The position numbers and the translations under genes are program-made. Shown piece after piece: positions 1 to 8,452 of a stretch of 8,452 bases of DNA. Each line of letters opens with the position of its first letter. The stretch's first letter is position 1. Origin of the DNA: a virus. Its lineage: Duplodnaviria > Heunggongvirae > Uroviricota > Caudoviricetes. The DNA is taken from IMG/VR virus record IMGVR_UViG_2802429224_000005, positions 1 to 8,452 of that record; one strand, 5' to 3'. The notes under the pieces are model-generated. The model was not told the origin of the DNA. It did not search any database and saw only the letters and a list, made by a program, of their open reading frames with translations.

Positions 1-3
1 AAG

Positions 4-480
4 ATGGTGGAAATCAATAATCAACGTAAGGCGTTCCTCGATATGCTGGCGTGGTCAGAGGGAACTGATAACGGACGACAGAAAACCAGAAATCATGGTT
101 ATGACGTCATTGTTGGCGGAGAGCTATTCACTGATTACTCCGATCACCCTCGCAAACTTGTCACGCTAAACCCCAAACTCAAATCAACAGCCGCCGGACG
201 TTACCAGCTTCTTTCCCGTTGGTGGGATGCCTACCGTAAGCAGCTTGGCCTGAAAGATTTCTCTCCGAAAAGCCAGGACGCTGTGGCATTGCAGCAGATT
301 AAGGAGCGTGGCGCTTTACCGATGATTGATCGCGGTGATATCCGTCAGGCAATCGACCGTTGCAGCAATATCTGGGCTTCACTGCCGGGCGCTGGTTATG
401 GTCAGTTCGAGCATAAGGCTGACAGCCTGATTGCAAAATTCAAAGAAGCGGGCGGAACGGTCAGAGAGATTGAGGTATGA
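4..480 (+). CDS. R: Phage endolysin, lambda R-type lytic transglycosylase (158 aa)
   Basis: Full-length ORF starting at ATG 4-6. Translation [26 protein letters not shown]... matches my recollection of lambda R almost residue for residue, including the catalytic Glu19 in the AWSEGT context. The stop overlaps the next gene's start as ATGA (477-480), as in lambda lysis cassettes. Confidence 0.93.
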
Positions 481-944
481 GCAGAGTCACCGCGATTATC
501 TCCGCTCTGGTTATCTGCATCATCGTCTGCCTGTCATGGGCTGTTAATCATTACCGTGATAACGCCATCGCCTATAAAGAACAGCGTGATAAAAAAGTCA
601 GTGAGCTGAAGCAGGCGACCGCCACCATTACTGACATGCAGCAGCGCCAGCGTGCTGCTGATGCACTCGATGCTAAATACACGAAGGAGTTAGCTGATGC
701 GAAAGCTGAAAATGATGCTCTTCGGCGCAAGCTTGATAATGGTGGCAGGGTGCTCGTCAAAGGAAAATGCCCTGTGCCATCCTCAGCCGAAACCTCCAGC
801 GCCTCCGGCATGGGCAATGATGCCACCGTCGAACTCTCTCCAGTTGCTGGACGAAACGTTCTCGGTATCCGGGACGGAATTATCCGCGACCAAACAGCAC
901 TGAGAACGCTTCAGGAATACATCAGGACGCAATGCCTTCGATGA
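477..944 (+). CDS. Rz: Rz-type i-spanin (inner-membrane spanin subunit, 155 aa)
   Basis: Immediately follows R with an ATGA overlap; GAGG RBS 5 nt upstream. N-terminal hydrophobic helix ([18 protein letters not shown]), then a charged coiled-coil-like region ([54 protein letters not shown]). The N-terminal half resembles lambda Rz as I recall it. Contains an embedded +1-frame ORF (Rz1). Confidence 0.85.
697..903 (+). CDS. Rz1: Rz1-type o-spanin (outer-membrane lipoprotein spanin subunit, 68 aa), fully embedded in the +1 frame of Rz
   Basis: ORF lies wholly inside Rz in another frame. AAGGAG RBS at 684-689, 7 nt before ATG 697. Product [24 protein letters not shown]... has a lipoprotein signal with a lipobox-like VAGC, followed by a proline-rich stretch ([16 protein letters not shown]) similar to lambda Rz1 (KPPPPPAW). 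Confidence 0.8.
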
Positions 945-1118
945 TAGCGATAATTTTACTCATCATCCTTCACATCTGGCTCTGTAGACAGGGTGGTGCT
1001 TACTTCTGGAGCGAATCCAGATTAAACATCTCATTGCTGATGCTTGAATTTAAGCATATGGCGCGCGGTAAGGGGCTGCGTTGAGACAAGAGCCAGTTCA
1101 TTACAAATACCAGGATTT

Positions 1119-1144
1119 TGCCTCGCATTCGCGGGGCTTTTTTA
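1119..1144 (+). terminator. Candidate rho-independent terminator in the Rz-rha intergenic region
   Basis: GC-rich imperfect hairpin (CCTCGC-ATTC-GCGGGG, about 6 bp stem with one G-U pair) at about 1121-1136, followed directly by a T tract (CTTTTTT, 1137-1143). Not energy-scored. Confidence 0.35.
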
Positions 1145-1287
1145 CATCTGAATTTCACCGCGCATCTCACGCGCATATTAACGAGAGCCTTTCAGTAAGC
1201 GAGCCTGAGAAATGCCGTTATAGGTGGCGACCTCTCTCGGGCGGCTTTTCTGTGAGACAGGCTCACTTTCTAAAAGGTAAAGACGCT

Positions 1288-1812
1288 ATGAATAATCCGT
1301 CAGTTATTCCGGCCTTTGACTTCCGAGAAATGGTGCAAGCTAAAAACGGAGAGGTCGTTACCACATCCAGAAAAGTTGCTACGTACTTCGGAAAGCGACA
1401 CGGTGATGTGCTCAGGAAAATCGAGCAGGTTAAGGCCGATTGCTCAAGAGAGTTTAGCCAACGCAATTTTGCGTCGGCTGATTATATCGATGAGCAGGGT
1501 AAGGTTCGCCCGATGTATAGCCTGACGAAAGATGGCTGGATCATGGTTGTTATGGGATTCACCGGGAAAGCTGCTGCGGCTATCAAAGAAAGCTACATTT
1601 CAGCGTTCAACTGGATGTCTGAGCAACTTAGCCGTCGCCTGGCCATGGGTGAAGAAATGCAGCACCGCTACGCCATCAAAGAAACGCGCTCAAAGTTGAA
1701 GGGAACGATCGGTAGCCGGTTGATGAATGAGCGGAAGAAAGAGAAGCGCGTTCTTGAGCTCGAGCATGAGCACATCATGCAGGTGACGCAGCCAGAATTG
1801 CTGATTGGCTGA
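1288..1812 (+). CDS. rha: Rha-family phage regulatory protein (Phage_pRha domain), 174 aa
   Basis: Translation from ATG 1288 (MNNPSVIPAFDFREMVQAKNGEVVTTSRKVATYFGKRHGDVLRKIEQ...YIDEQGKVRPMYSLTKDGWIMVVMGFTGKAAAAIKESYISAFNWMSEQL) follows the conserved pattern of the Rha N-terminal domain. The six-frame track extends this ORF to 1081, but that extension starts at TTG and runs through the terminator-like hairpin, so I prefer ATG 1288, which has an AAGG purine-rich patch about 10 nt upstream. Confidence 0.8.
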   Translation: MNNPSVIPAFDFREMVQAKNGEVVTTSRKVATYFGKRHGDVLRKIEQVKADCSREFSQRNFASADYIDEQGKVRPMYSLTKDGWIMVVMGFTGKAAAAIKESYISAFNWMSEQLSRRLAMGEEMQHRYAIKETRSKLKGTIGSRLMNERKKEKRVLELEHEHIMQVTQPELLIG

Positions 1813-1878
1813 TTGACATTACAGAAACTCTTCACTGAGGTGCTTGGACAATGGCGCACCTAACGATGCGCCTAAAAC

Positions 1879-2139
1879 TCAACCCCTGTTGAAATTCTCT
1901 TTTGCTTCATTAATGAGATCTGAAGCGATCCGAAAGCTATTAGGGTTGGAATTGCTAATCAAACCTTTAACTGTTTCTTCTAATTCAATCAGCGCCTGAT
2001 TGCTGTGCGCAGACCTTGCAACGTTAGTCAATAAGGCAACCAAAATTGCCTCATGGGCAATGGCATGTTCTTTATCAGTTGTTTCTATGCGAAGCGGGCT
2101 GTTGGATGATCGTAGGCTTGTTTGGTTGAACGAAGACAT
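1879..2139 (-). CDS. Hypothetical protein (86 aa), predicted mostly helical; function unknown
   Basis: Minus-strand ORF with a canonical GGAGG Shine-Dalgarno about 6 nt upstream of the ATG (reverse complement of 2140-2155 reads ...ATATAGGAGGAAGAATG). Convergent with rha and divergent from the small + ORF at 2193. No family recognised by eye. Confidence 0.55.
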   Translation of the reverse strand: MSSFNQTSLRSSNSPLRIETTDKEHAIAHEAILVALLTNVARSAHSNQALIELEETVKGLISNSNPNSFRIASDLINEAKENFNRG

Positions 2140-2192
2140 TCTTCCTCCTATATGTCATTGGTAATTTTAACCGCCTTTGAAGGTATAACACT

Positions 2193-2399
2193 ATGTCCGA
2201 CATCTACCAAATCACGCTAACCACCCAAACAGGCGAAACCTTCACTGGCAAGATGTCACGACGTCAGCATGAGCTGGTTAATGGCTTTGTGCCGCTGGCG
2301 ACCGAGACAGGCGAGTAGCTGTACTTTGCTCCTGGTGATGCGAAGCGCGTGCAGTTCACGCCAGTAGCGGCAGGACAGACAGAGCAAACGACGGAGTAA
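2193..2399 (+). pseudogene. Small phage ORF interrupted by an in-frame amber (TAG) codon: 41 codons to TAG 2316-2318, reading frame stays open a further 26 codons to TAA 2397-2399
   Basis: Translated codon by codon: MSDIYQITLTTQTGETFTGKMSRRQHELVNGFVPLATETGE-[TAG]-LYFAPGDAKRVQFTPVAAGQTEQTTE-[TAA]. Either a 41-aa product, a nonsense-disrupted 68-codon gene, or an amber-suppressible gene. The RBS is weak (GAAGG about 11 nt upstream). Confidence 0.35.
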
Positions 2400-2496
2400 C
2401 CTATGGCTAACGATGGAGAGCCTAGGTAATGTCCGCCAATTATCTTTCCCGACTCTGGCAACTGGCATCCATGAGCCTTTTTACATATGCTGAGTA

Positions 2497-3402
2497 TTAA
2501 CTGATATATCCATGAGCTTTGAGATAATTTTCCGCAATAATCATACCTACTGGATTGATGACTAGTGAGTCAAGTTCTGTAAGGGTTGAAATACCAAAAG
2601 AGTCGAGAACTAATTTTGTAGCTGGGAATGCTTCATAAAATGATGCATCAGATGTAAGAGTGTCATAACCCGTTCTTTTTGATAATAACTCTAAGTAATT
2701 GATATTATATATTTTATCTGAGAAAAATACGCCTTTAATTTCTAATAGCTGCTGATTTAGGCGTTTGAGGGTGAAATGTTCTCCAAGAAATTTTATATAA
2801 TCTGTTTCATAAACAGCATACATTGACCTATGGATCATGTAATTTTCTTCCAAGGAAATGTTAGGTAGTGAAAAATGAGTACTTTTTTTCTCTGCAAGTT
2901 CTGTGATATTTATACTTCCTACCATCTTATTGATTGAACGTAAAAAATATACAAATGCCAAAAACTTAATATCATTAGTGGTCAGTCTGGATGTTGTATC
3001 TAACGCTTGATCGATCAAAATGCTTTGGTCTTCTTGATCGTTTTCAATTTTAGTAACTATTAACTCCTTAAGAAGTTCTGATTTTGCATCAAACCCCTTT
3101 CTTGCGACCTGAACGACTGCTTGATTGAGGGTGTACTGAATATCGGGATCAGCGAGTTTTGCTCTTAGTTTTTCATCAACATCTTTAGATAGTTTTTCTG
3201 CAATTTGGTGACCAAATTCTTGAGCCCGTGAGTCGACTAAAGCGAATGCATCTTCACGAAGCGAAGCCATTTCACTTTTGACCATTAACTGGCAAATAGC
3301 CATGACCTCAGTAGTGGTGTTGCCAAAGTAGGCATCACCTGTAACTTGTATAGCTGAGGAGTTATCACCCACACTTTGACCGGATTTCTCGAATAAGCTC
3401 AT
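2497..3402 (-). CDS. Hypothetical protein (301 aa), downstream gene of an AT-rich two-gene moron operon; no recognisable catalytic motif; candidate effector or sensor of an undescribed exclusion/defence module
   Basis: Long minus-strand ORF in a compositionally distinct AT-rich segment. The start ATG (3402-3400) overlaps the stop TGA (3401-3399) of the upstream small membrane-protein gene as ATGA, implying translational coupling. N-terminus carries GQSVGDNSSAIQVTGDAY, a near-copy of the motif at the C-terminus of the upstream protein. Confidence 0.7.
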   Translation of the reverse strand: MSLFEKSGQSVGDNSSAIQVTGDAYFGNTTTEVMAICQLMVKSEMASLREDAFALVDSRAQEFGHQIAEKLSKDVDEKLRAKLADPDIQYTLNQAVVQVARKGFDAKSELLKELIVTKIENDQEDQSILIDQALDTTSRLTTNDIKFLAFVYFLRSINKMVGSINITELAEKKSTHFSLPNISLEENYMIHRSMYAVYETDYIKFLGEHFTLKRLNQQLLEIKGVFFSDKIYNINYLELLSKRTGYDTLTSDASFYEAFPATKLVLDSFGISTLTELDSLVINPVGMIIAENYLKAHGYIS

Positions 3403-3644
3403 TCTTTGTCCCTTTCATTAATAGTTATGTTGCCACCAATTTGTATACCGCTAGAGTTATCGCCGATTGTTTGGCTAACACCTTGCTCTTTAGCTTTGTT
3501 GCTTTTTAGATTTGCTAAGGCTGTTAGAAAAACGACCAAACTCGCTAATGCTGCTAGCGCTGTGGATAATGTTTGACTGGTTATGGCTTGATAGCCAAAG
3601 CCTAAAGCCGAACAAAAAGATACAAATACGATTAATTTTCTCAC
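3399..3644 (-). CDS. Small predicted membrane protein (about 81 aa, two hydrophobic helices), upstream gene of the two-gene moron operon
   Basis: Minus-strand ORF with a probable GTG start at 3644 preceded by GGAG with a 6-nt spacer (minus strand reads CTGGAGATTTTCGTG). The alternative ATG at 3686 would put the start inside terS. Product VRKLIVFVSFCSALGFGYQAI...LSTALAALASLVVFLTALANL...GVSQTIGDNSSGIQIGGNITINERDKE has two hydrophobic segments and then a soluble tail carrying the shared motif. Confidence 0.6.
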   Translation of the reverse strand: MRKLIVFVSFCSALGFGYQAITSQTLSTALAALASLVVFLTALANLKSNKAKEQGVSQTIGDNSSGIQIGGNITINERDKE

Positions 3645-3665
3645 GAAAATCTCCAGAGATAAAAC

Positions 3666-4193
3666 ATGGCACTTACTGACAAGCAAGAAATGTTCTGTCG
3701 CGAGTACCTCATCGATTTAAACGCCACGCAAGCGGCTATTCGGGCGGGGTACAGCGCAAAGACAGCTAACCGTACCGCATCCGAAAACCTGTCAAAACCT
3801 GACATCAAGTTAAGAATCGCCGAACTGAAAGCGCAACGCAATGATCTTGTTGGTATTAATGCAGAATATGTACTTAATCGCCTTCTTGAAATCGACCAGA
3901 TGGATGTGCTCGACATTCTCCTGCAAAACGGTGAGTTAAAGCCCATTAAAGACTGGCCTAAGGTATGGCGTACAACGCTATCAGGAATGGATGTCGTGGA
4001 GATGGTATCCGCAGATAGTGCCGCACTTCTGAAGAAAATCAAATGGCCTGATAAGGTTAAAAACCTCGAACTTCTTGGTAAGCATGTTTCCGTTCAGGCG
4101 TTTAAAGAACAATCTTCGCACGAGCTAACAGGCAAAGACGGCGGCGCAATTCAGATTGAAACATCACCGATGAGCACTCTATTCGAAAAATGA
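3666..4193 (+). CDS. terS: Terminase small subunit, Terminase_2 (P27-like) family, 175 aa
   Basis: N-terminus MALTDKQEMFCREYLIDLNATQAAIRAGYSAKTANRTASENLSKPDIKLRIAELKAQR matches the conserved signature of Terminase_2-type small subunits (LTxKQxxFCxEYLxDxNATQAAIRAGYS). Stop overlaps the terL start as ATGA (4190-4193). Confidence 0.85.
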   Translation: MALTDKQEMFCREYLIDLNATQAAIRAGYSAKTANRTASENLSKPDIKLRIAELKAQRNDLVGINAEYVLNRLLEIDQMDVLDILLQNGELKPIKDWPKVWRTTLSGMDVVEMVSADSAALLKKIKWPDKVKNLELLGKHVSVQAFKEQSSHELTGKDGGAIQIETSPMSTLFEK

Positions 4194-5605
4194 ACTCGAT
4201 TAATCCTATCTTTGAACCGTTCATTGAGGCGCATCGCTACAAAGTTGCCAAAGGCGGTCGAGGTAGCGGTAAGTCATGGGCAATTGCGAGACTGCTTGTT
4301 GAAGCGGCGCGTCGGCAGCCTGTGCGTATTCTTTGCGCTCGTGAACTGCAAAACAGTATCAGCGATTCGGTAATCCGACTGCTTGAAGACACCATAGAGC
4401 GGGAAGGGTATTCGGCTGAGTTTGAAATTCAGCGTTCAATGATTCGTCATCTCGGAACGAATGCTGAATTCATGTTCTACGGCATAAAAAACAACCCTAC
4501 GAAGATTAAATCGCTCGAAGGCATTGATATCTGCTGGGTGGAAGAAGCGGAAGCGGTAACGAAGGAATCGTGGGATATCCTGATTCCAACCATCCGTAAG
4601 CCGTTCTCTGAAATATGGGTGAGTTTCAACCCGAAAAACATACTCGACGATACCTATCAGCGGTTCGTCGTAAATCCTCCCGATGATATTTGCCTACTGA
4701 CGGTGAACTACACCGACAACCCGCATTTTCCTGAAGTTCTCCGTCTGGAGATGGAAGAGTGCAAACGCAGAAATCCGACACTGTATCGTCACATCTGGCT
4801 TGGTGAGCCAGTAAGCGCAAGTGATATGGCAATCATCAAACGTGAATGGCTTGAAGCTGCAACCGATGCGCACAAGAAACTCGGATGGAAAGCGAAAGGT
4901 GCGGTTGTCTCTGCACATGACCCATCAGATACAGGGTCAGATGCTAAAGGTTATGTATCGCGTCACGGTTCGGTTGTTAAGCGCATTGCCGAAGGTCTGC
5001 TGATGGACATCAACGAGGGTGCTGACTGGGCTACTTCGCTGGCGATTGAAGACGGCGCTGACCATTACCTGTGGGATGGTGATGGTGTTGGTGCCGGGCT
5101 ACGCAGACAGACAACGGAAGCGTTCTCCGGTAAGAAAATCACCGCCACGATGTTCAAGGGCAGCGAATCGCCATTCGATGAAGATGCACCGTATCAGGCC
5201 GGAGCATGGGCTGATGAAGTCGTACAGGGTGACAACGTTCGCACTATTGGTGATGTATTCCGCAATAAGCGAGCGCAATTCTATTACGCACTGGCTGACA
5301 GGCTGTATCTGACATATCGGGCGGTTGTCCACGGTGAGTATGCAGACCCCGACGACATGCTGAGCTTCGATAAAGAAGCGATAGGCGAGAAGATGCTGGA
5401 GAAGCTGTTTGCAGAACTGACGCAGATTCAGCGCAAATTCAATAACAACGGGAAGCTGGAGCTTATGACTAAGGTCGAAATGAAGCAGAAGCTCGGGATC
5501 CCATCTCCTAACCTGGCTGATGCGTTGATGATGTGTATGCATTTTCCGGAGTCGGCTGCGCAACCCGACTATTCTAGTTACTCAATTCCTTGTGGTGTAG
5601 GTTGA
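4190..5605 (+). CDS. terL: Terminase large subunit (ATPase/nuclease), Terminase_3/PBSX-like, 471 aa
   Basis: Walker A-like VAKGGRGSGKS near the N-terminus and Walker B-like acidic motif DICWVEEAE. Size and position directly downstream of terS and upstream of portal are typical. Confidence 0.9.
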   Translation: MNSINPIFEPFIEAHRYKVAKGGRGSGKSWAIARLLVEAARRQPVRILCARELQNSISDSVIRLLEDTIEREGYSAEFEIQRSMIRHLGTNAEFMFYGIKNNPTKIKSLEGIDICWVEEAEAVTKESWDILIPTIRKPFSEIWVSFNPKNILDDTYQRFVVNPPDDICLLTVNYTDNPHFPEVLRLEMEECKRRNPTLYRHIWLGEPVSASDMAIIKREWLEAATDAHKKLGWKAKGAVVSAHDPSDTGSDAKGYVSRHGSVVKRIAEGLLMDINEGADWATSLAIEDGADHYLWDGDGVGAGLRRQTTEAFSGKKITATMFKGSESPFDEDAPYQAGAWADEVVQGDNVRTIGDVFRNKRAQFYYALADRLYLTYRAVVHGEYADPDDMLSFDKEAIGEKMLEKLFAELTQIQRKFNNNGKLELMTKVEMKQKLGIPSPNLADALMMCMHFPESAAQPDYSSYSIPCGVG

Positions 5606-5606
5606 T

Positions 5607-7805
5607 ATGGCAGAAAAAAAGATGACTGACTGGCATCGCAAGGTGCTGTGCAACTTTGATAATGCCTGGTCAGCAACGCAGGATATGCGTGAGCAGATTA
5701 TTGAGGCTCAACGTTTCGTACGGGTGTCCGGCGCACAGTGGGAAGGCAGCACAAACGCTGGTTACTCATTTGATGAAGGCAGGTTTGAGCATTATCCGCG
5801 TTTTGAACTGAATAAGATTGCTCGTGAATGTGATCGCATCATTGGCGAGTATCGGCAGAATCGCATCAGCGTTAAATTCAGGCCGAAGGATGACAAGGCA
5901 TCGGAAGCGTTAGCCGAAAAGATGAACGGCAAATTCCGCGCTGATTATCAGGAAACATCCGGTGGCGAAGCGTGTGATAACGCATTTGATGATGCTGTAA
6001 CGGGCGGATTCGGTTGTTTCCGCATGTGTGCTGATTACGAAGATGAAATGGATCCGAGTAACGAGCAGCGACGCATCAGCCTTCTTCCTGTTTACGACCC
6101 AGCGACATGCGTCTTCTTCGATCAGGACAGCAAGCAATATGACCGCTCTGATGCTATGTGGGCTATGGAAATGTTCTCCATGACGCCTAAAGCGTTCGAG
6201 GCTGAATACCCTGATTCCATCGCGGCAAGTCTTTCTCGTGATGACACTGGCACTCAATATGACTGGTCAACGCCTGATGCCATCTATGTTGGGCGCTACT
6301 ACGAAGTTCGCATAGAGAAGGTGAAGCTCACGGCGTGGCGCAACCCTGTTAGCGGAGAAACGGCAATCTATGATGAAGAGCAAATCAAAGATATTGTCGA
6401 CGAGCTGACCGATGGCGCATTCGAACTGATTGGTGAGCGAACGGTGAAGAAACGCCGCGTTTATTGCGGCCTTCTGTCTGGCGCTGAATGGCTGGAAGAA
6501 CCGAAGCGTATTCCGGGCGAACATATTCCACTCATCCCGGTATATGGGCGTCGCTCATTTGTTGATAATCAGGAGCGAATCGAAGGCCACGCAGCAAAAG
6601 CGATGGATGCACAGCGTCTTGAGAACCTGATGGTTTCCATGATTGCAGATAACGCCACTCAGGCTGGCGGTGATGGTATTCCTATCGTGGATGTTGATTT
6701 TATTCCCGGTCCATTAATGAATCACTGGGCAGAGAGGAATAAGAAAAGACCTGCAGTTCTTCCTATGACCAGCAAGAAGGACAAAAACGGAACAGTCATT
6801 TCAGAAGCTCAGGTTGCTGGCTGGACACCTCCGACACAAATGCCTCCTGCTCTTGCCGGGCTATTGCAGTACACCGGAACGGCTATTCAGCAAATTACAG
6901 GTGCGTCGCAGCTTGAGAACATGCCGAGCAACGTCGCTACCGATACCGTTGATAGTATCTTTAACCGGATGGATACGCAGTCCTATATCTACATGGACAA
7001 CATGGCTAAATCCATGCGCCGCGCTGGCGTCGTGTGGCTTTCTATGGCTCGTGAAGTCTATGGCAGCGATACGCCAATGCGCATCGTTAATGAGGACGGC
7101 AGCGATGACGTGGCGCTAATGACTGGTGAAGTGGTTGACCGTCAGACAGGGCAGGTTATCGCGCTTAACGACCTTTCGCAGGGTAACTATGAAGTGACTG
7201 TCGATGTCGGTCAGTCGTTCGCTACTCGCCGTGATGCAACGGTTAAGTCGTTACTTTCCATGCTGGCACTTATCCCGCCAGGGACGCCGAAGCACGACCT
7301 TGTATCGTCGATGATTCTCGACAATATGGACGGCGAAGGGATGGACGACCTTAAAGAATACAACCGCAATCAGTTGCTTCTGTCTGGCGTTATCAAGCCG
7401 AGAACGCCTGAAGAACAGCAGATGGTTGAACAGGCGAAACAACAACAGGCCAGTCAGCCAGATCCGGCTATGGTTGCAGCGCAAGGTCAGCTTCTTGCTG
7501 GTCAGGCTGAATTGCAGAAAGCGCAGAACGAACAGGCAGCCATTCAGGTTAAAGCATTCCAGGCACAGACTGATGCTCAGGTTGCAGCGGCAAATGTTGT
7601 GAAAATCCTCGCATCTGCCGATAGTCAGCAGAAATCTGATATCCGCGAGGCTCTGAAACTGCTCGGACAGTTCCAGCAACAGCAAGGAGATAATGCCCGT
7701 GCTGATGCAGAGCTTGTCCTGAAAAGTCAGGCACAGGGCCATGCGCAGCGCATGGACATCAGCAGCATCCTGCAAAAATCAACTCAGCAACAACCACAGC
7801 AGTAA
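5607..7805 (+). CDS. Portal protein, P22 gp1-like, 732 aa, with a Gln/Ala-rich C-terminal helical extension
   Basis: Several blocks match P22 portal as I recall it (RRRVY, PGEHIPLIPVYG, PRTPEEQQ, DPAMVAAQGQLLAGQAELQKAQN, ARADAELVLK, QRMDISSILQ), and length is close to the 725-aa P22 gp1. Starts 1 nt after the terL stop. Confidence 0.92.
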   Translation: MAEKKMTDWHRKVLCNFDNAWSATQDMREQIIEAQRFVRVSGAQWEGSTNAGYSFDEGRFEHYPRFELNKIARECDRIIGEYRQNRISVKFRPKDDKASEALAEKMNGKFRADYQETSGGEACDNAFDDAVTGGFGCFRMCADYEDEMDPSNEQRRISLLPVYDPATCVFFDQDSKQYDRSDAMWAMEMFSMTPKAFEAEYPDSIAASLSRDDTGTQYDWSTPDAIYVGRYYEVRIEKVKLTAWRNPVSGETAIYDEEQIKDIVDELTDGAFELIGERTVKKRRVYCGLLSGAEWLEEPKRIPGEHIPLIPVYGRRSFVDNQERIEGHAAKAMDAQRLENLMVSMIADNATQAGGDGIPIVDVDFIPGPLMNHWAERNKKRPAVLPMTSKKDKNGTVISEAQVAGWTPPTQMPPALAGLLQYTGTAIQQITGASQLENMPSNVATDTVDSIFNRMDTQSYIYMDNMAKSMRRAGVVWLSMAREVYGSDTPMRIVNEDGSDDVALMTGEVVDRQTGQVIALNDLSQGNYEVTVDVGQSFATRRDATVKSLLSMLALIPPGTPKHDLVSSMILDNMDGEGMDDLKEYNRNQLLLSGVIKPRTPEEQQMVEQAKQQQASQPDPAMVAAQGQLLAGQAELQKAQNEQAAIQVKAFQAQTDAQVAAANVVKILASADSQQKSDIREALKLLGQFQQQQGDNARADAELVLKSQAQGHAQRMDISSILQKSTQQQPQQ

Positions 7806-7895
7806 TTAACCCATAACGTGCAATGGCTGTCTTTATGAGGCCTTGCACCCTATTGCCTTCCGATGGGCTGAACATCGAGTAAACAGGGGTAACAA

Positions 7896-8452
<557 letters not shown>

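Follow-up and report, generated by a model that had tools for sequence, protein, structure and literature searches.

We describe a pair of genes in an 8,452-nucleotide stretch of virus DNA (Caudoviricetes; positions 1 to 8,452 of the IMG/VR record IMGVR_UViG_2802429224_000005). This whole stretch is called the window in the following and is a junction in the late region of a lambdoid/P22-like prophage. The pair is a leftward moron in the slot between the lysis genes and terS, and it encodes a putative membrane effector of 81 aa and a putative sensor of 301 aa. Based on comparative analysis of sequences and predicted structures we interpret the locus as a mobile, self-contained two-gene conflict module, most probably serving abortive infection (Abi) or phage exclusion, in which the two proteins would be coupled by the assembly of a motif that both of them carry. 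We put the probability of this interpretation at roughly one half. A preliminary description of the window, made from its letters, had proposed the pair with due caution as a phage-exclusion or Abi candidate and had overlooked the motif common to both proteins. The protein families and the motif lie outside any described system; the kind of module, a sensor with a membrane effector for Abi, is itself known.

The sequence and the list of open reading frames (ORFs) agree with the preliminary description in that both genes lie on the minus strand, antisense to the late operon, and overlap by the four bases ATGA. The same 4-bp overlap recurs in the Klebsiella, Providencia and Pantoea loci, and we read it as translational coupling of the two genes. 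For the small gene the mechanical ORF call ran from a TTG codon (3399-3686, 95 aa), but the GTG at 3644 is the better start: a GGAG Shine-Dalgarno sequence lies 6 nt upstream of it (3651-3654, minus strand), and RefSeq picks the same start (a coding sequence of 246 nt) in E. coli loci that are 99.7% identical. The locus is AT-rich as described, with a GC content of 0.363 across 2497-3644 compared to 0.493 in the left and 0.498 in the right flank. Relative to the 90%-identical locus L021 we computed a ratio of nonsynonymous to synonymous substitution rates (dN/dS) of 0.30 in the large and 0.52 in the small gene, and thus both genes are coding and under constraint. Conservation and dN/dS together rule out that the pair is an artefact or a product of chance ORFs.

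A motif common to both proteins

A motif of about 20 residues, rich in G, N, Q and S, is present on the tail of the small protein and again at the N-terminus of the 301-aa protein (Table 1). The local alignment of the two copies in the window has a score of 52. With shuffles that preserved composition, this score was equalled in 3 of 5,000 cases when the small protein was shuffled and in 7 of 5,000 cases when the large protein was shuffled. The copy at the C-terminus of the small partner is conserved in 40 pairs, and a loose core pattern of the N-terminal copy was found in 71 of 147 family representatives. When all loci were translated in six frames, a stringent version of the pattern matched the genes of the pair alone. 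Aligned on the invariant Gln, the effector copies give the consensus SQKVSDNSTGIQAGGDVNIN and the sensor copies give DQSVGGGSTAIQAGGDVTIG. In the AlphaFold2 monomer models each copy lies in a disordered segment.

We also compared the two copies across 31 non-redundant pairs. The motif identity is 0.453 within pairs and 0.406 between pairs, a value reached in 12 of 50,000 permutations; the effect is modest and shared descent can inflate such values, so the covariation is suggestive and not conclusive. Changes in the motif are identical on both sides, for instance AYQS...M in locus L049 and the exchange between G and R at position Q+3.

The composition of the motif is 18% G, 12% S, 12% I, 11% N, 10.5% Q, 9.6% V, 4.2% K, 0.4% L and 0.1% P. 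It fits the criterion for bacterial amyloid signalling motifs, for which a bias towards G, N, Q, V and I and away from K, P and L has been described (bioRxiv 10.1101/2020.01.06.895854). The RHIM-type core GIQIG is literally present in the effector tail of the window. Among 37 effector tails, 27 show the G-phi-Q-phi-G signature if Ala is allowed as phi, and 3 show the full core G[IV]Q[IVLC]G. For the RHIM core tetrad [IV]-Q-[IVLC]-G we observed IQIG in the effector and IQVT in the sensor of the window, and IQAG in the family consensus. The sole match of the motif profile among PDB sequences is the N-terminal framework of the nanobody nb139 (9q6y_C, QVQLVESGGGAVQAGG, E 6), which we regard as a chance resemblance.

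Protein families, partners and sensor modularity

Hydropathy and an AlphaFold2 hairpin bear out the two transmembrane helices that had been predicted for the 81-aa protein. In the model, helices at residues 2-22 and 25-52 form a helical hairpin with a predicted local distance difference test score (pLDDT) of 84-91, and the tail (residues 53-80) is disordered. A basic linker, KSNKAK, comes after helix 2, and by the positive-inside rule we infer that the tail is cytoplasmic. We found 31 homologues at 55-93% identity, every one named 'hypothetical' and none with a Pfam domain. The small protein is conserved above the sensor, with 80-93% identity where the sensor shows 55-60%. It gave no significant match in Pfam, PADLOC or NCBIfam, its match to the holin family phrog_565 (E 0.059) is not significant, and no known immune effector domain, of Bell/HeLo type or other, was found in it. 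The small gene is antisense to the holin-lysozyme-Rz cassette and lies outside it, unlike what a class II holin would require.

The 301-aa protein had been described as showing no recognisable motif. We likewise found no Walker, nuclease or HEPN domain in either protein of the pair (local Pfam, PADLOC); the large protein nevertheless belongs to a named family. It scores 97.5 bits on the NCBIfam profile NF045477 (LPO_1073/Vpar_1526), with a cut-off of 45 and an E value of 9.9e-28, and residues 27-295 align to profile positions 1-244 of 257. The RefSeq product name also places it in the LPO_1073/Vpar_1526 family, and a precomputed Pfam assignment, PF28206 (Vpar_1526), exists for P0001, the 100%-identical cluster, as well as for each of the 63 close homologues. 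The local Pfam search returned no match for this protein because PF28206 is newer than that copy of the database. Neither local Pfam nor PADLOC nor PHROGs offered anything with a function, and the homology to a structural, lysis or housekeeping family that would have spoken against an exclusion module was not found. A profile search of 1.84 billion representatives gave 1,547 family clusters (50% identity) at E<=1e-3 and 553 at E<=1e-10, spread over many phyla.

AlphaFold2 returned a confident all-alpha model for the 301-aa protein (pLDDT 78.9, predicted template modelling score 0.78), in which residues 1-27 are disordered with pLDDT below 50. The predicted fold matches neither a solved structure nor a viral one; Foldseek against BFVD gave nothing at E<=0.001, and the family profile had no significant match among the PDB sequences. 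The term 'undescribed' in the preliminary description holds for function: the searched literature reports no function, mechanism, shared motif or obligate membrane partner for the family. It does not hold for the family as such, for which NCBIfam and Pfam entries and a machine-learning prediction (see below) exist. Searches for LPO_1073 or Vpar_1526 returned no literature besides a table of a Veillonella envelope proteome, and the family accessions were matched neither in main texts nor in the supplements of one candidate paper. This study found Vpar_1526 in uninfected Veillonella, in the outer-membrane and surface fractions and in whole cells (PMC5491611).

The link between the two genes is obligate, and their translation is coupled. 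Each unfused locus that we examined encodes, directly upstream of the Vpar_1526 gene, a small protein with one or two transmembrane helices, a basic linker and the motif. Besides the window, the pair occurs in four enterobacterial contexts (Klebsiella, Serratia, Providencia and Pantoea), in 13 IMG/VR contigs, in the metagenomic contig L029 and in one P2-like prophage. The arrangement also recurs in 35 loci of about a dozen phyla, intact in 33 of them and decayed in 2; they cover Alpha-, Beta- and Gammaproteobacteria, Chlorobi, Planctomycetes, Bacteroidota, Spirochaetota, Nitrospirota, Bacillota, Desulfobulbia, Cyanobacteria, Chloroflexi, Fibrobacteres and Armatimonadota. No constant third gene was seen near the pair in 33 distant loci. 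A variation on the arrangement is found in Nitrospirillum (L013/L031, 3757-5778), with a single small motif-bearing gene followed by two tandem Vpar_1526 paralogues that differ in their C-terminal halves; an HNH_2 gene lies upstream.

We also encountered fused proteins. P0196 combines two transmembrane helices, two copies of the motif and a Vpar_1526 domain, and in P0177 the domain is joined to the motif and a single transmembrane helix. In P0166 and P0188 an HNH-like module precedes motif-like repeats and the Vpar_1526 domain; P0188 alone matches the Pfam family HNH_2 (E 1e-3, below the cut-off), and P0166 has no such match. Such natural fusions indicate that the Vpar_1526 domain is functionally coupled to an N-terminal effector, and they show that this effector is exchangeable. 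Recombination between the motif-coding repeats of an unfused pair would yield an in-frame fusion with a single motif such as P0177.

The conservation of the sensor is strongly position-dependent. In the enterobacterial alignment the motif and the N-terminal domain are conserved and the C-terminal half is not. Five homologues show identities of 92.6% in the motif, about 80% in the N-terminal domain and 30-36% in the C-terminal domain, and column entropies are 1.3-2.4 bits in the C-terminal domain compared to 0.55-1.13 bits N-terminally. In blastn comparisons the homology of several further loci with the cassette to the window runs rightwards from 2937-2993 and leaves out 2497-2936. The stretch in common comprises the small gene with the N-terminal half of the sensor gene on one side and the 5' end of terS on the other; in the Pantoea-type loci it extends to 3916. 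Since the homology starts between 2937 and 2993, a recombination breakpoint is placed near codon 136-150. Against L021 we detected a dS of 0.245 in the C-terminal half and 0.066 in the N-terminal domain, with dN/dS values of 0.33 and 0.10, respectively. A dN/dS of 0.33 together with the raised dS speaks for module exchange by recombination and not for simple positive selection on the C-terminal domain. We regard this domain as a putative specificity or sensing module.

Distribution, slot and cassette boundaries

P2-like prophages carry a distant paralogous pair (29% identity over the N-terminal half), with the replication gene A/DinI on one side and the portal gene Q on the other. The A-Q interval is the P2 hotspot of anti-phage systems, where P2 itself has old and tin (Rousset et al., PMC9122126). 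The paralogous pair adjoins Hp1, Hp2 and Hp3 (PADLOC E 1e-156 to 1e-247), a three-gene system 'with no clear predicted domain' that is protective against P1, and its accessions are given as hypothetical in the table of hotspot arrangements (supplementary file 6) of the same study (PMC9122126). DefensePredictor lists the paralogue WP_000490525.1 as 'Predicted novel defense gene' with mean log-odds of 9.3-10.4 and gives WP_025380464.1 log-odds of 8.86; its strict cut-off is 4 and its overall validation rate is 45%, higher with increasing score (PMC13092281). The hotspot paralogue, these predictions, the hypervariable C-terminal half of the sensor and the fusions with HNH-like or transmembrane segments support the cautious proposal of an exclusion or Abi candidate.

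The preliminary description had further suggested that the locus is a variable accessory cassette and not a core component of this phage type, and the distribution agrees. DNA nearly identical to that of the window is present in E. coli chromosomes and in prophage contigs of IMG/VR. We found the full cassette in 13 of 5,426 complete E. coli genomes; 190 more share the adjacent terS edge alone. E. coli Rb-23 carries the same cassette (99.7%) in a lambdoid prophage with a different terL and different head genes, and its homology to the window stops inside terS at 4108. The cassette is thus present in two different late-gene backbones (that of the window and that of L001). Conversely, prophages with the terS edge in common have unrelated leftward cargo in the slot, namely YkgJ or YodC + DUF6953 in the terL/portal backbone of the window (L070, L071) and a 78-aa protein in the other backbone (L002, L068, L069). 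In Klebsiella, Providencia and Pantoea the pair is antisense in the same lysis-terminase slot of unrelated phage backbones, and it persists in a decayed Pantoea prophage. There are also occurrences outside prophages: the Serratia pair adjoins an IS3-family transposase, outside a phage. The neighbours in the 33 distant loci are heterogeneous and include integrases, type IV secretion system and conjugation genes, a transposase, type I restriction-modification, GmrSD, mads and housekeeping genes.

We compared the cassette to prophages without it. With L002, a prophage that lacks the cassette, homology sets in again precisely at 3645, at the start of an unrelated leftward gene, and the ribosome-binding site and upstream region are therefore resident in the slot and common to different cargo. 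We also observed that in many prophages (L002 at 4996-5019, L068-L071) a distance of about 24 nt separates the start codon of terS from the start of a leftward gene, and that these genes are unrelated to each other. The upstream sequence is common to those leftward genes, with a direct alignment for L002 alone. The leftward promoter and the ribosome-binding site thus seem to belong to the slot and not to the cargo. On the left, blastn comparisons place the boundary between 2386 and 2497, close to a 13-nt direct repeat around the stop codon of the large gene. The repeat is possibly a recombination scar, and its downstream copy may stem from an earlier C-terminal module or from the insertion of the cassette. 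Table 1 gives the positions of all features.

Table 1. Features of the window, with position, strand and the basis or a remark.
Feature	Position	Strand	Basis or remark
Small gene, 81 aa, GTG start at 3644, putative membrane effector	3399-3644	-	ORF and sequence
Transmembrane helix 1, residues ~4-22	3579-3635	-	Kyte-Doolittle 19-residue mean 1.66; AlphaFold2 helix 2-22, pLDDT 84-88
Transmembrane helix 2, residues ~26-46	3507-3569	-	Kyte-Doolittle 19-residue mean 2.20 (residues 26-44); AlphaFold2 helix 25-52
Effector-side motif copy, S57-N76, SQTIGDNSSGIQIGGNITIN	3417-3476	-	Local alignment; conserved in 40 pairs
ATGA overlap, large-gene ATG (3402-3400) and small-gene TGA (3401-3399)	3399-3402	-	Sequence
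Large gene, 301 aa, ATG start, putative sensor	2497-3402	-	ORF list
Sensor-side motif copy, G8-G27, GQSVGDNSSAIQVTGDAYFG	3322-3381	-	Local alignment; across family representatives
Conserved N-terminal helical domain, residues 28-150	2953-3321	-	Alignment; invariant DPD-Q and QVARKG motifs
Hypervariable C-terminal domain, residues 151-301	2500-2952	-	Entropy, DNA comparison; GC 0.31; pLDDT about 90
13-nt direct repeat, ATCCATGAGCCTT / ATCCATGAGCTTT, around large-gene stop codon	2467-2479 and 2508-2520		Near left boundary
Right cassette boundary and shared upstream region	3645-3665		Runs on into terS 5' end
Lysozyme	4-480	+	
Rz	477-944	+	Nested Rz1-like ORF 697-903
Rha		+	Pfam Phage_pRha, E 7e-28
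terS	3666-4193	+	Terminase_2, E 1e-39
terL	4190-5605	+	
Portal	5607-7805	+	

The pair had been placed between rha and terS, and it does lie within this interval. It is not directly adjacent to rha, as two small ORFs intervene (1879-2139 on the minus strand and 2193-2318 on the plus strand). The first of these encodes 86 aa behind a strong AGGAGG Shine-Dalgarno sequence and corresponds to the RefSeq hypothetical protein WP_000093956.1. It has no credible family among the databases searched, with just a PADLOC match to MTase_II (16 bits, E 9e-4) and a sub-threshold NCBIfam match to LacT, and it may be a second leftward moron distinct from the pair. The second, of 41 aa, matches the first 41 of the 66 positions of phrog_6581 (E 2e-20) and is a RefSeq pseudogene with an internal stop; the segment 2193-2318 also borders the cassette in the prophages L019, L021 and L024. 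A scan for a terminator after 2497 gave none, and a search of Rfam gave no match.

Two further observations concern the surroundings of the slot. When phages were searched with the cassette by megablast, the sole match was to the 5' end of terS. The first 81 nt of terS (3667-3747) are 92.6% identical to P22 40745-40825, where no feature is annotated, and match equally BTP1 39810-39890, which carries the annotation 'pid: Pid regulatory protein'. The small terminase of P22 itself appears to be a different one, and the 81-nt match looks like a remnant of a terS 5' end or a slot-resident regulatory region common to the P22 pid ORFan locus. In the Klebsiella prophages L003-L006, which carry the pair, a gene of ~350 aa with a RelA_SpoT domain (8726-9787) lies between the antiterminator and the holin and resembles the toxSAS/CapRel class of prophage defence genes.

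Proposed working and competing explanations

In the mechanism that we favour, the variable C-terminal domain would recognise a phage-derived cue, and self-association of the sensor would then gather its N-terminal motifs. They would stack in register into a homotypic beta assembly, amyloid-like or cross-beta, and the membrane hairpins, whose tails bear the identical motif, would have this motif recruited or templated by the assembly. Clustering of the hairpins could breach the inner membrane and collapse the proton-motive force, and the infected cell would arrest or die before the phage cycle is completed. In the all-in-one relatives this sensor with its motif is fused to an HNH-like nuclease or directly to the transmembrane segment.

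The closest characterised analogue, by architecture, is Bab/Agp. The two proteins of this pair, from a prophage of E. coli ECOR25, have a BASS11 motif in common, which forms amyloid and passes on the activation when T5 infects (bioRxiv 10.1101/2024.11.07.622273). Both systems consist of two adjacent genes in an E. coli prophage, both have a motif of ~20-25 residues at the C-terminus of the small effector and at the N-terminus of the larger sensor, and for both a motif-motif activation leading to membrane damage and abortive infection is proposed. They differ in the effector, an integral two-helix hairpin here, whereas Bab is soluble, with a Bell-like helical domain and a hydrophobic helix at its N-terminus, and in the sensor, which here is a 301-aa all-alpha protein without a known domain. 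The residues of the motif are also different (I87-G88-S89-V90 in BASS11, a core of G/A-I-Q-A/V/I-G here), and Bab/Agp has been studied by experiment, whereas the pair described here is known from comparative evidence.

In 40 pairs we observed the arrangement by which BASS/FASS pairs are recognised, i.e. adjacent co-oriented genes with the motif at the C-terminus of the effector and the N-terminus of the receptor. The same placement is found in the Bell/NLR pairs with BASS motifs, including the RHIM-like BASS3 (Dyrka et al. 2020, bioRxiv 10.1101/2020.01.06.895854), and fungal HET-S/NWD2 has a similar architecture. Further similarities are a 4-bp ORF overlap in the example given for those pairs, a motif rich in G, N, Q, V and I and poor in K, P and L with a central G-phi-Q-phi-G signature, and the existence of fused all-in-one relatives, which here, in contrast, keep the motif. 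The pair described here is without NB-ARC/NACHT NTPase, repeats, Bell or HeLo domain. Moreover, reports of BASS motifs mainly concern multicellular bacteria, whereas prophages and unicellular lineages widely carry the pair described here.

RexA/RexB of lambda is a two-gene exclusion system of a prophage in which a cytoplasmic sensor of about 280-300 aa acts with an inner-membrane effector that depolarises the cell. By analogy alone, as drawn in the preliminary description, the pair resembles it as a cytoplasmic sensor with a membrane effector in a prophage. RexB is larger and polytopic, the gene order is reversed and a shared motif is not known there, and no homology of the pair to RexA or RexB was found. 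Class II holins or pinholins and the small effectors of CBASS or of the P2/P4 hotspots are likewise N-in/C-in transmembrane proteins whose triggered oligomerisation breaches the membrane, but they are triggered by timing or by a nucleotide signal, where we propose a shared peptide motif. Transmembrane proteins in defence systems are regarded as suicide effectors, for example in the system of TIR and transmembrane proteins of phage AC1 (PMC9122126).

Several results weigh against this interpretation. As the sensor is not an NLR/STAND NTPase and the effector is not of the Bell/HeLo type, the likeness to known amyloid-signalling pairs is architectural alone. The family-wide core of the motif is A/G-I-Q-A-G and not G-[IV]-Q-[IV]-G. 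Membership in the RHIM family (PF12721) is rejected: 1 of 42 segments touches the profile, namely the effector tail of the window, with E 0.14 and 12.2 bits compared to a gathering threshold of 20, and the family-wide motif profile found no RHIM chain in the PDB at E<=10. The covariation of the two copies is modest, as stated above, and the motif is kept in the fused all-in-one proteins, unlike in NLR all-in-one architectures. There it suits a structural or self-association role or a docking peptide as well as it suits templating. On the side of defence, PADLOC gave no match at E<=1 for either protein of the pair and none for the P2 paralogues themselves. Neither accession is in the DefensePredictor table of screened transcription units (PMC13092281), and the score may be partly due to the neighbouring Hp1-3 genes. 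In the searched literature we found no experimental test of any family member. The alternative cargo of the lambdoid slot (the 78-aa protein, YkgJ, YodC + DUF6953) is not known defence, and the neighbourhoods of the distant members are weakly enriched in defence genes (scattered matches in 33 loci). No homologue was detected by tblastn in 50,697 deposited phage genomes, and a scan for a leftward sigma-70 promoter upstream of 3644 gave none that was convincing.

We therefore treat a working similar to amyloid signalling as the leading hypothesis and not as a classification, since the searches for RHIM or BASS membership came back negative where they were run. The more specific claim, that the motif constitutes a new and very widespread amyloid-type (cross-beta, templating) signalling family joining the Vpar_1526 fold to membrane-hairpin and HNH effectors, is tentative and on balance doubtful.

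The main rival keeps the defence module and assigns the motif the role of a docking peptide, which we consider rather unlikely. The tail of the effector and the N-terminus of the sensor would compete for one site on the N-terminal domain; the N-terminus would autoinhibit and the tail would tether, and a constitutive 1:1 membrane-anchored complex would free or open the effector in the manner of RexA/RexB. One common binding site would make the two copies co-vary as observed, and the retention of the motif in the fused proteins, the co-fractionation of Vpar_1526 with the envelope in uninfected cells and the lack of significant RHIM similarity are all in line with such a tether. AlphaFold2, on the other hand, leaves residues 1-27 undocked on the domain with pLDDT below 50. 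A composition of G, N, Q, S, I and V with identical residues co-varying is what in-register stacking predicts, and not what is expected of a peptide in a groove, and the tandem or pseudo-repeated copies in P0196 and P0166 also argue against docking.

Two other explanations are less likely than docking. In a toxin-antitoxin or addiction module the small protein would be a constitutive toxin which the 301-aa protein restrains via the motif, so that the prophage or island is stabilised. Translational coupling with a small hydrophobic protein is what such a module would show, and so are the mobile elements with adjoining integrases or insertion sequences and the retention of the pair in a decayed Pantoea prophage. 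A recombining hypervariable C-terminal domain and tandem 'antitoxins' are unexpected for a simple neutraliser, though, the fusions with HNH-like or transmembrane segments would unite toxin and antitoxin in one polypeptide, and the paralogue in the P2 defence hotspot and the high DefensePredictor score point elsewhere; we consider this explanation improbable. Least probable of all is a role in the life cycle of the phage, as superinfection exclusion (a block of DNA entry) or as a lysis-timing accessory tied to the lysis cassette. Such a role would suit the placement of the pair between lysis genes and terS, seen in several unrelated prophages, and a small protein that has class II holin size and topology and a very weak holin PHROG match (E 0.059). 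Against it, the pair is AT-rich and antisense to the late operon, most related prophages lack it, it is absent from all of the 50,697 deposited phage genomes, and it is widespread in non-phage chromosomal contexts of many phyla.

If the pair is a defence system, as we favour, it adds a large family (>1,500 clusters at 50% identity, in many phyla) which rule-based detection has missed. If the homotypic beta assembly is true, bacterial immunity would have a second case of amyloid-like signalling, far more widespread than the first and in a minimal architecture of 81 + 301 aa that is easily dissected, and this case would bear on the question of an ancient or a convergent origin of RHIM, PP and BASS-type death signalling. 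Should the motif represent a new amyloid-type family, prion-like immune signalling would be common in unicellular bacteria, beyond the NLRs of multicellular microbes or the single case of Bab/Agp, with lambdoid and P2-like prophages moving it from genome to genome. With its conserved signalling half and swappable C-terminal half the sensor is also a natural system for the intragenic recombination of recognition specificity.

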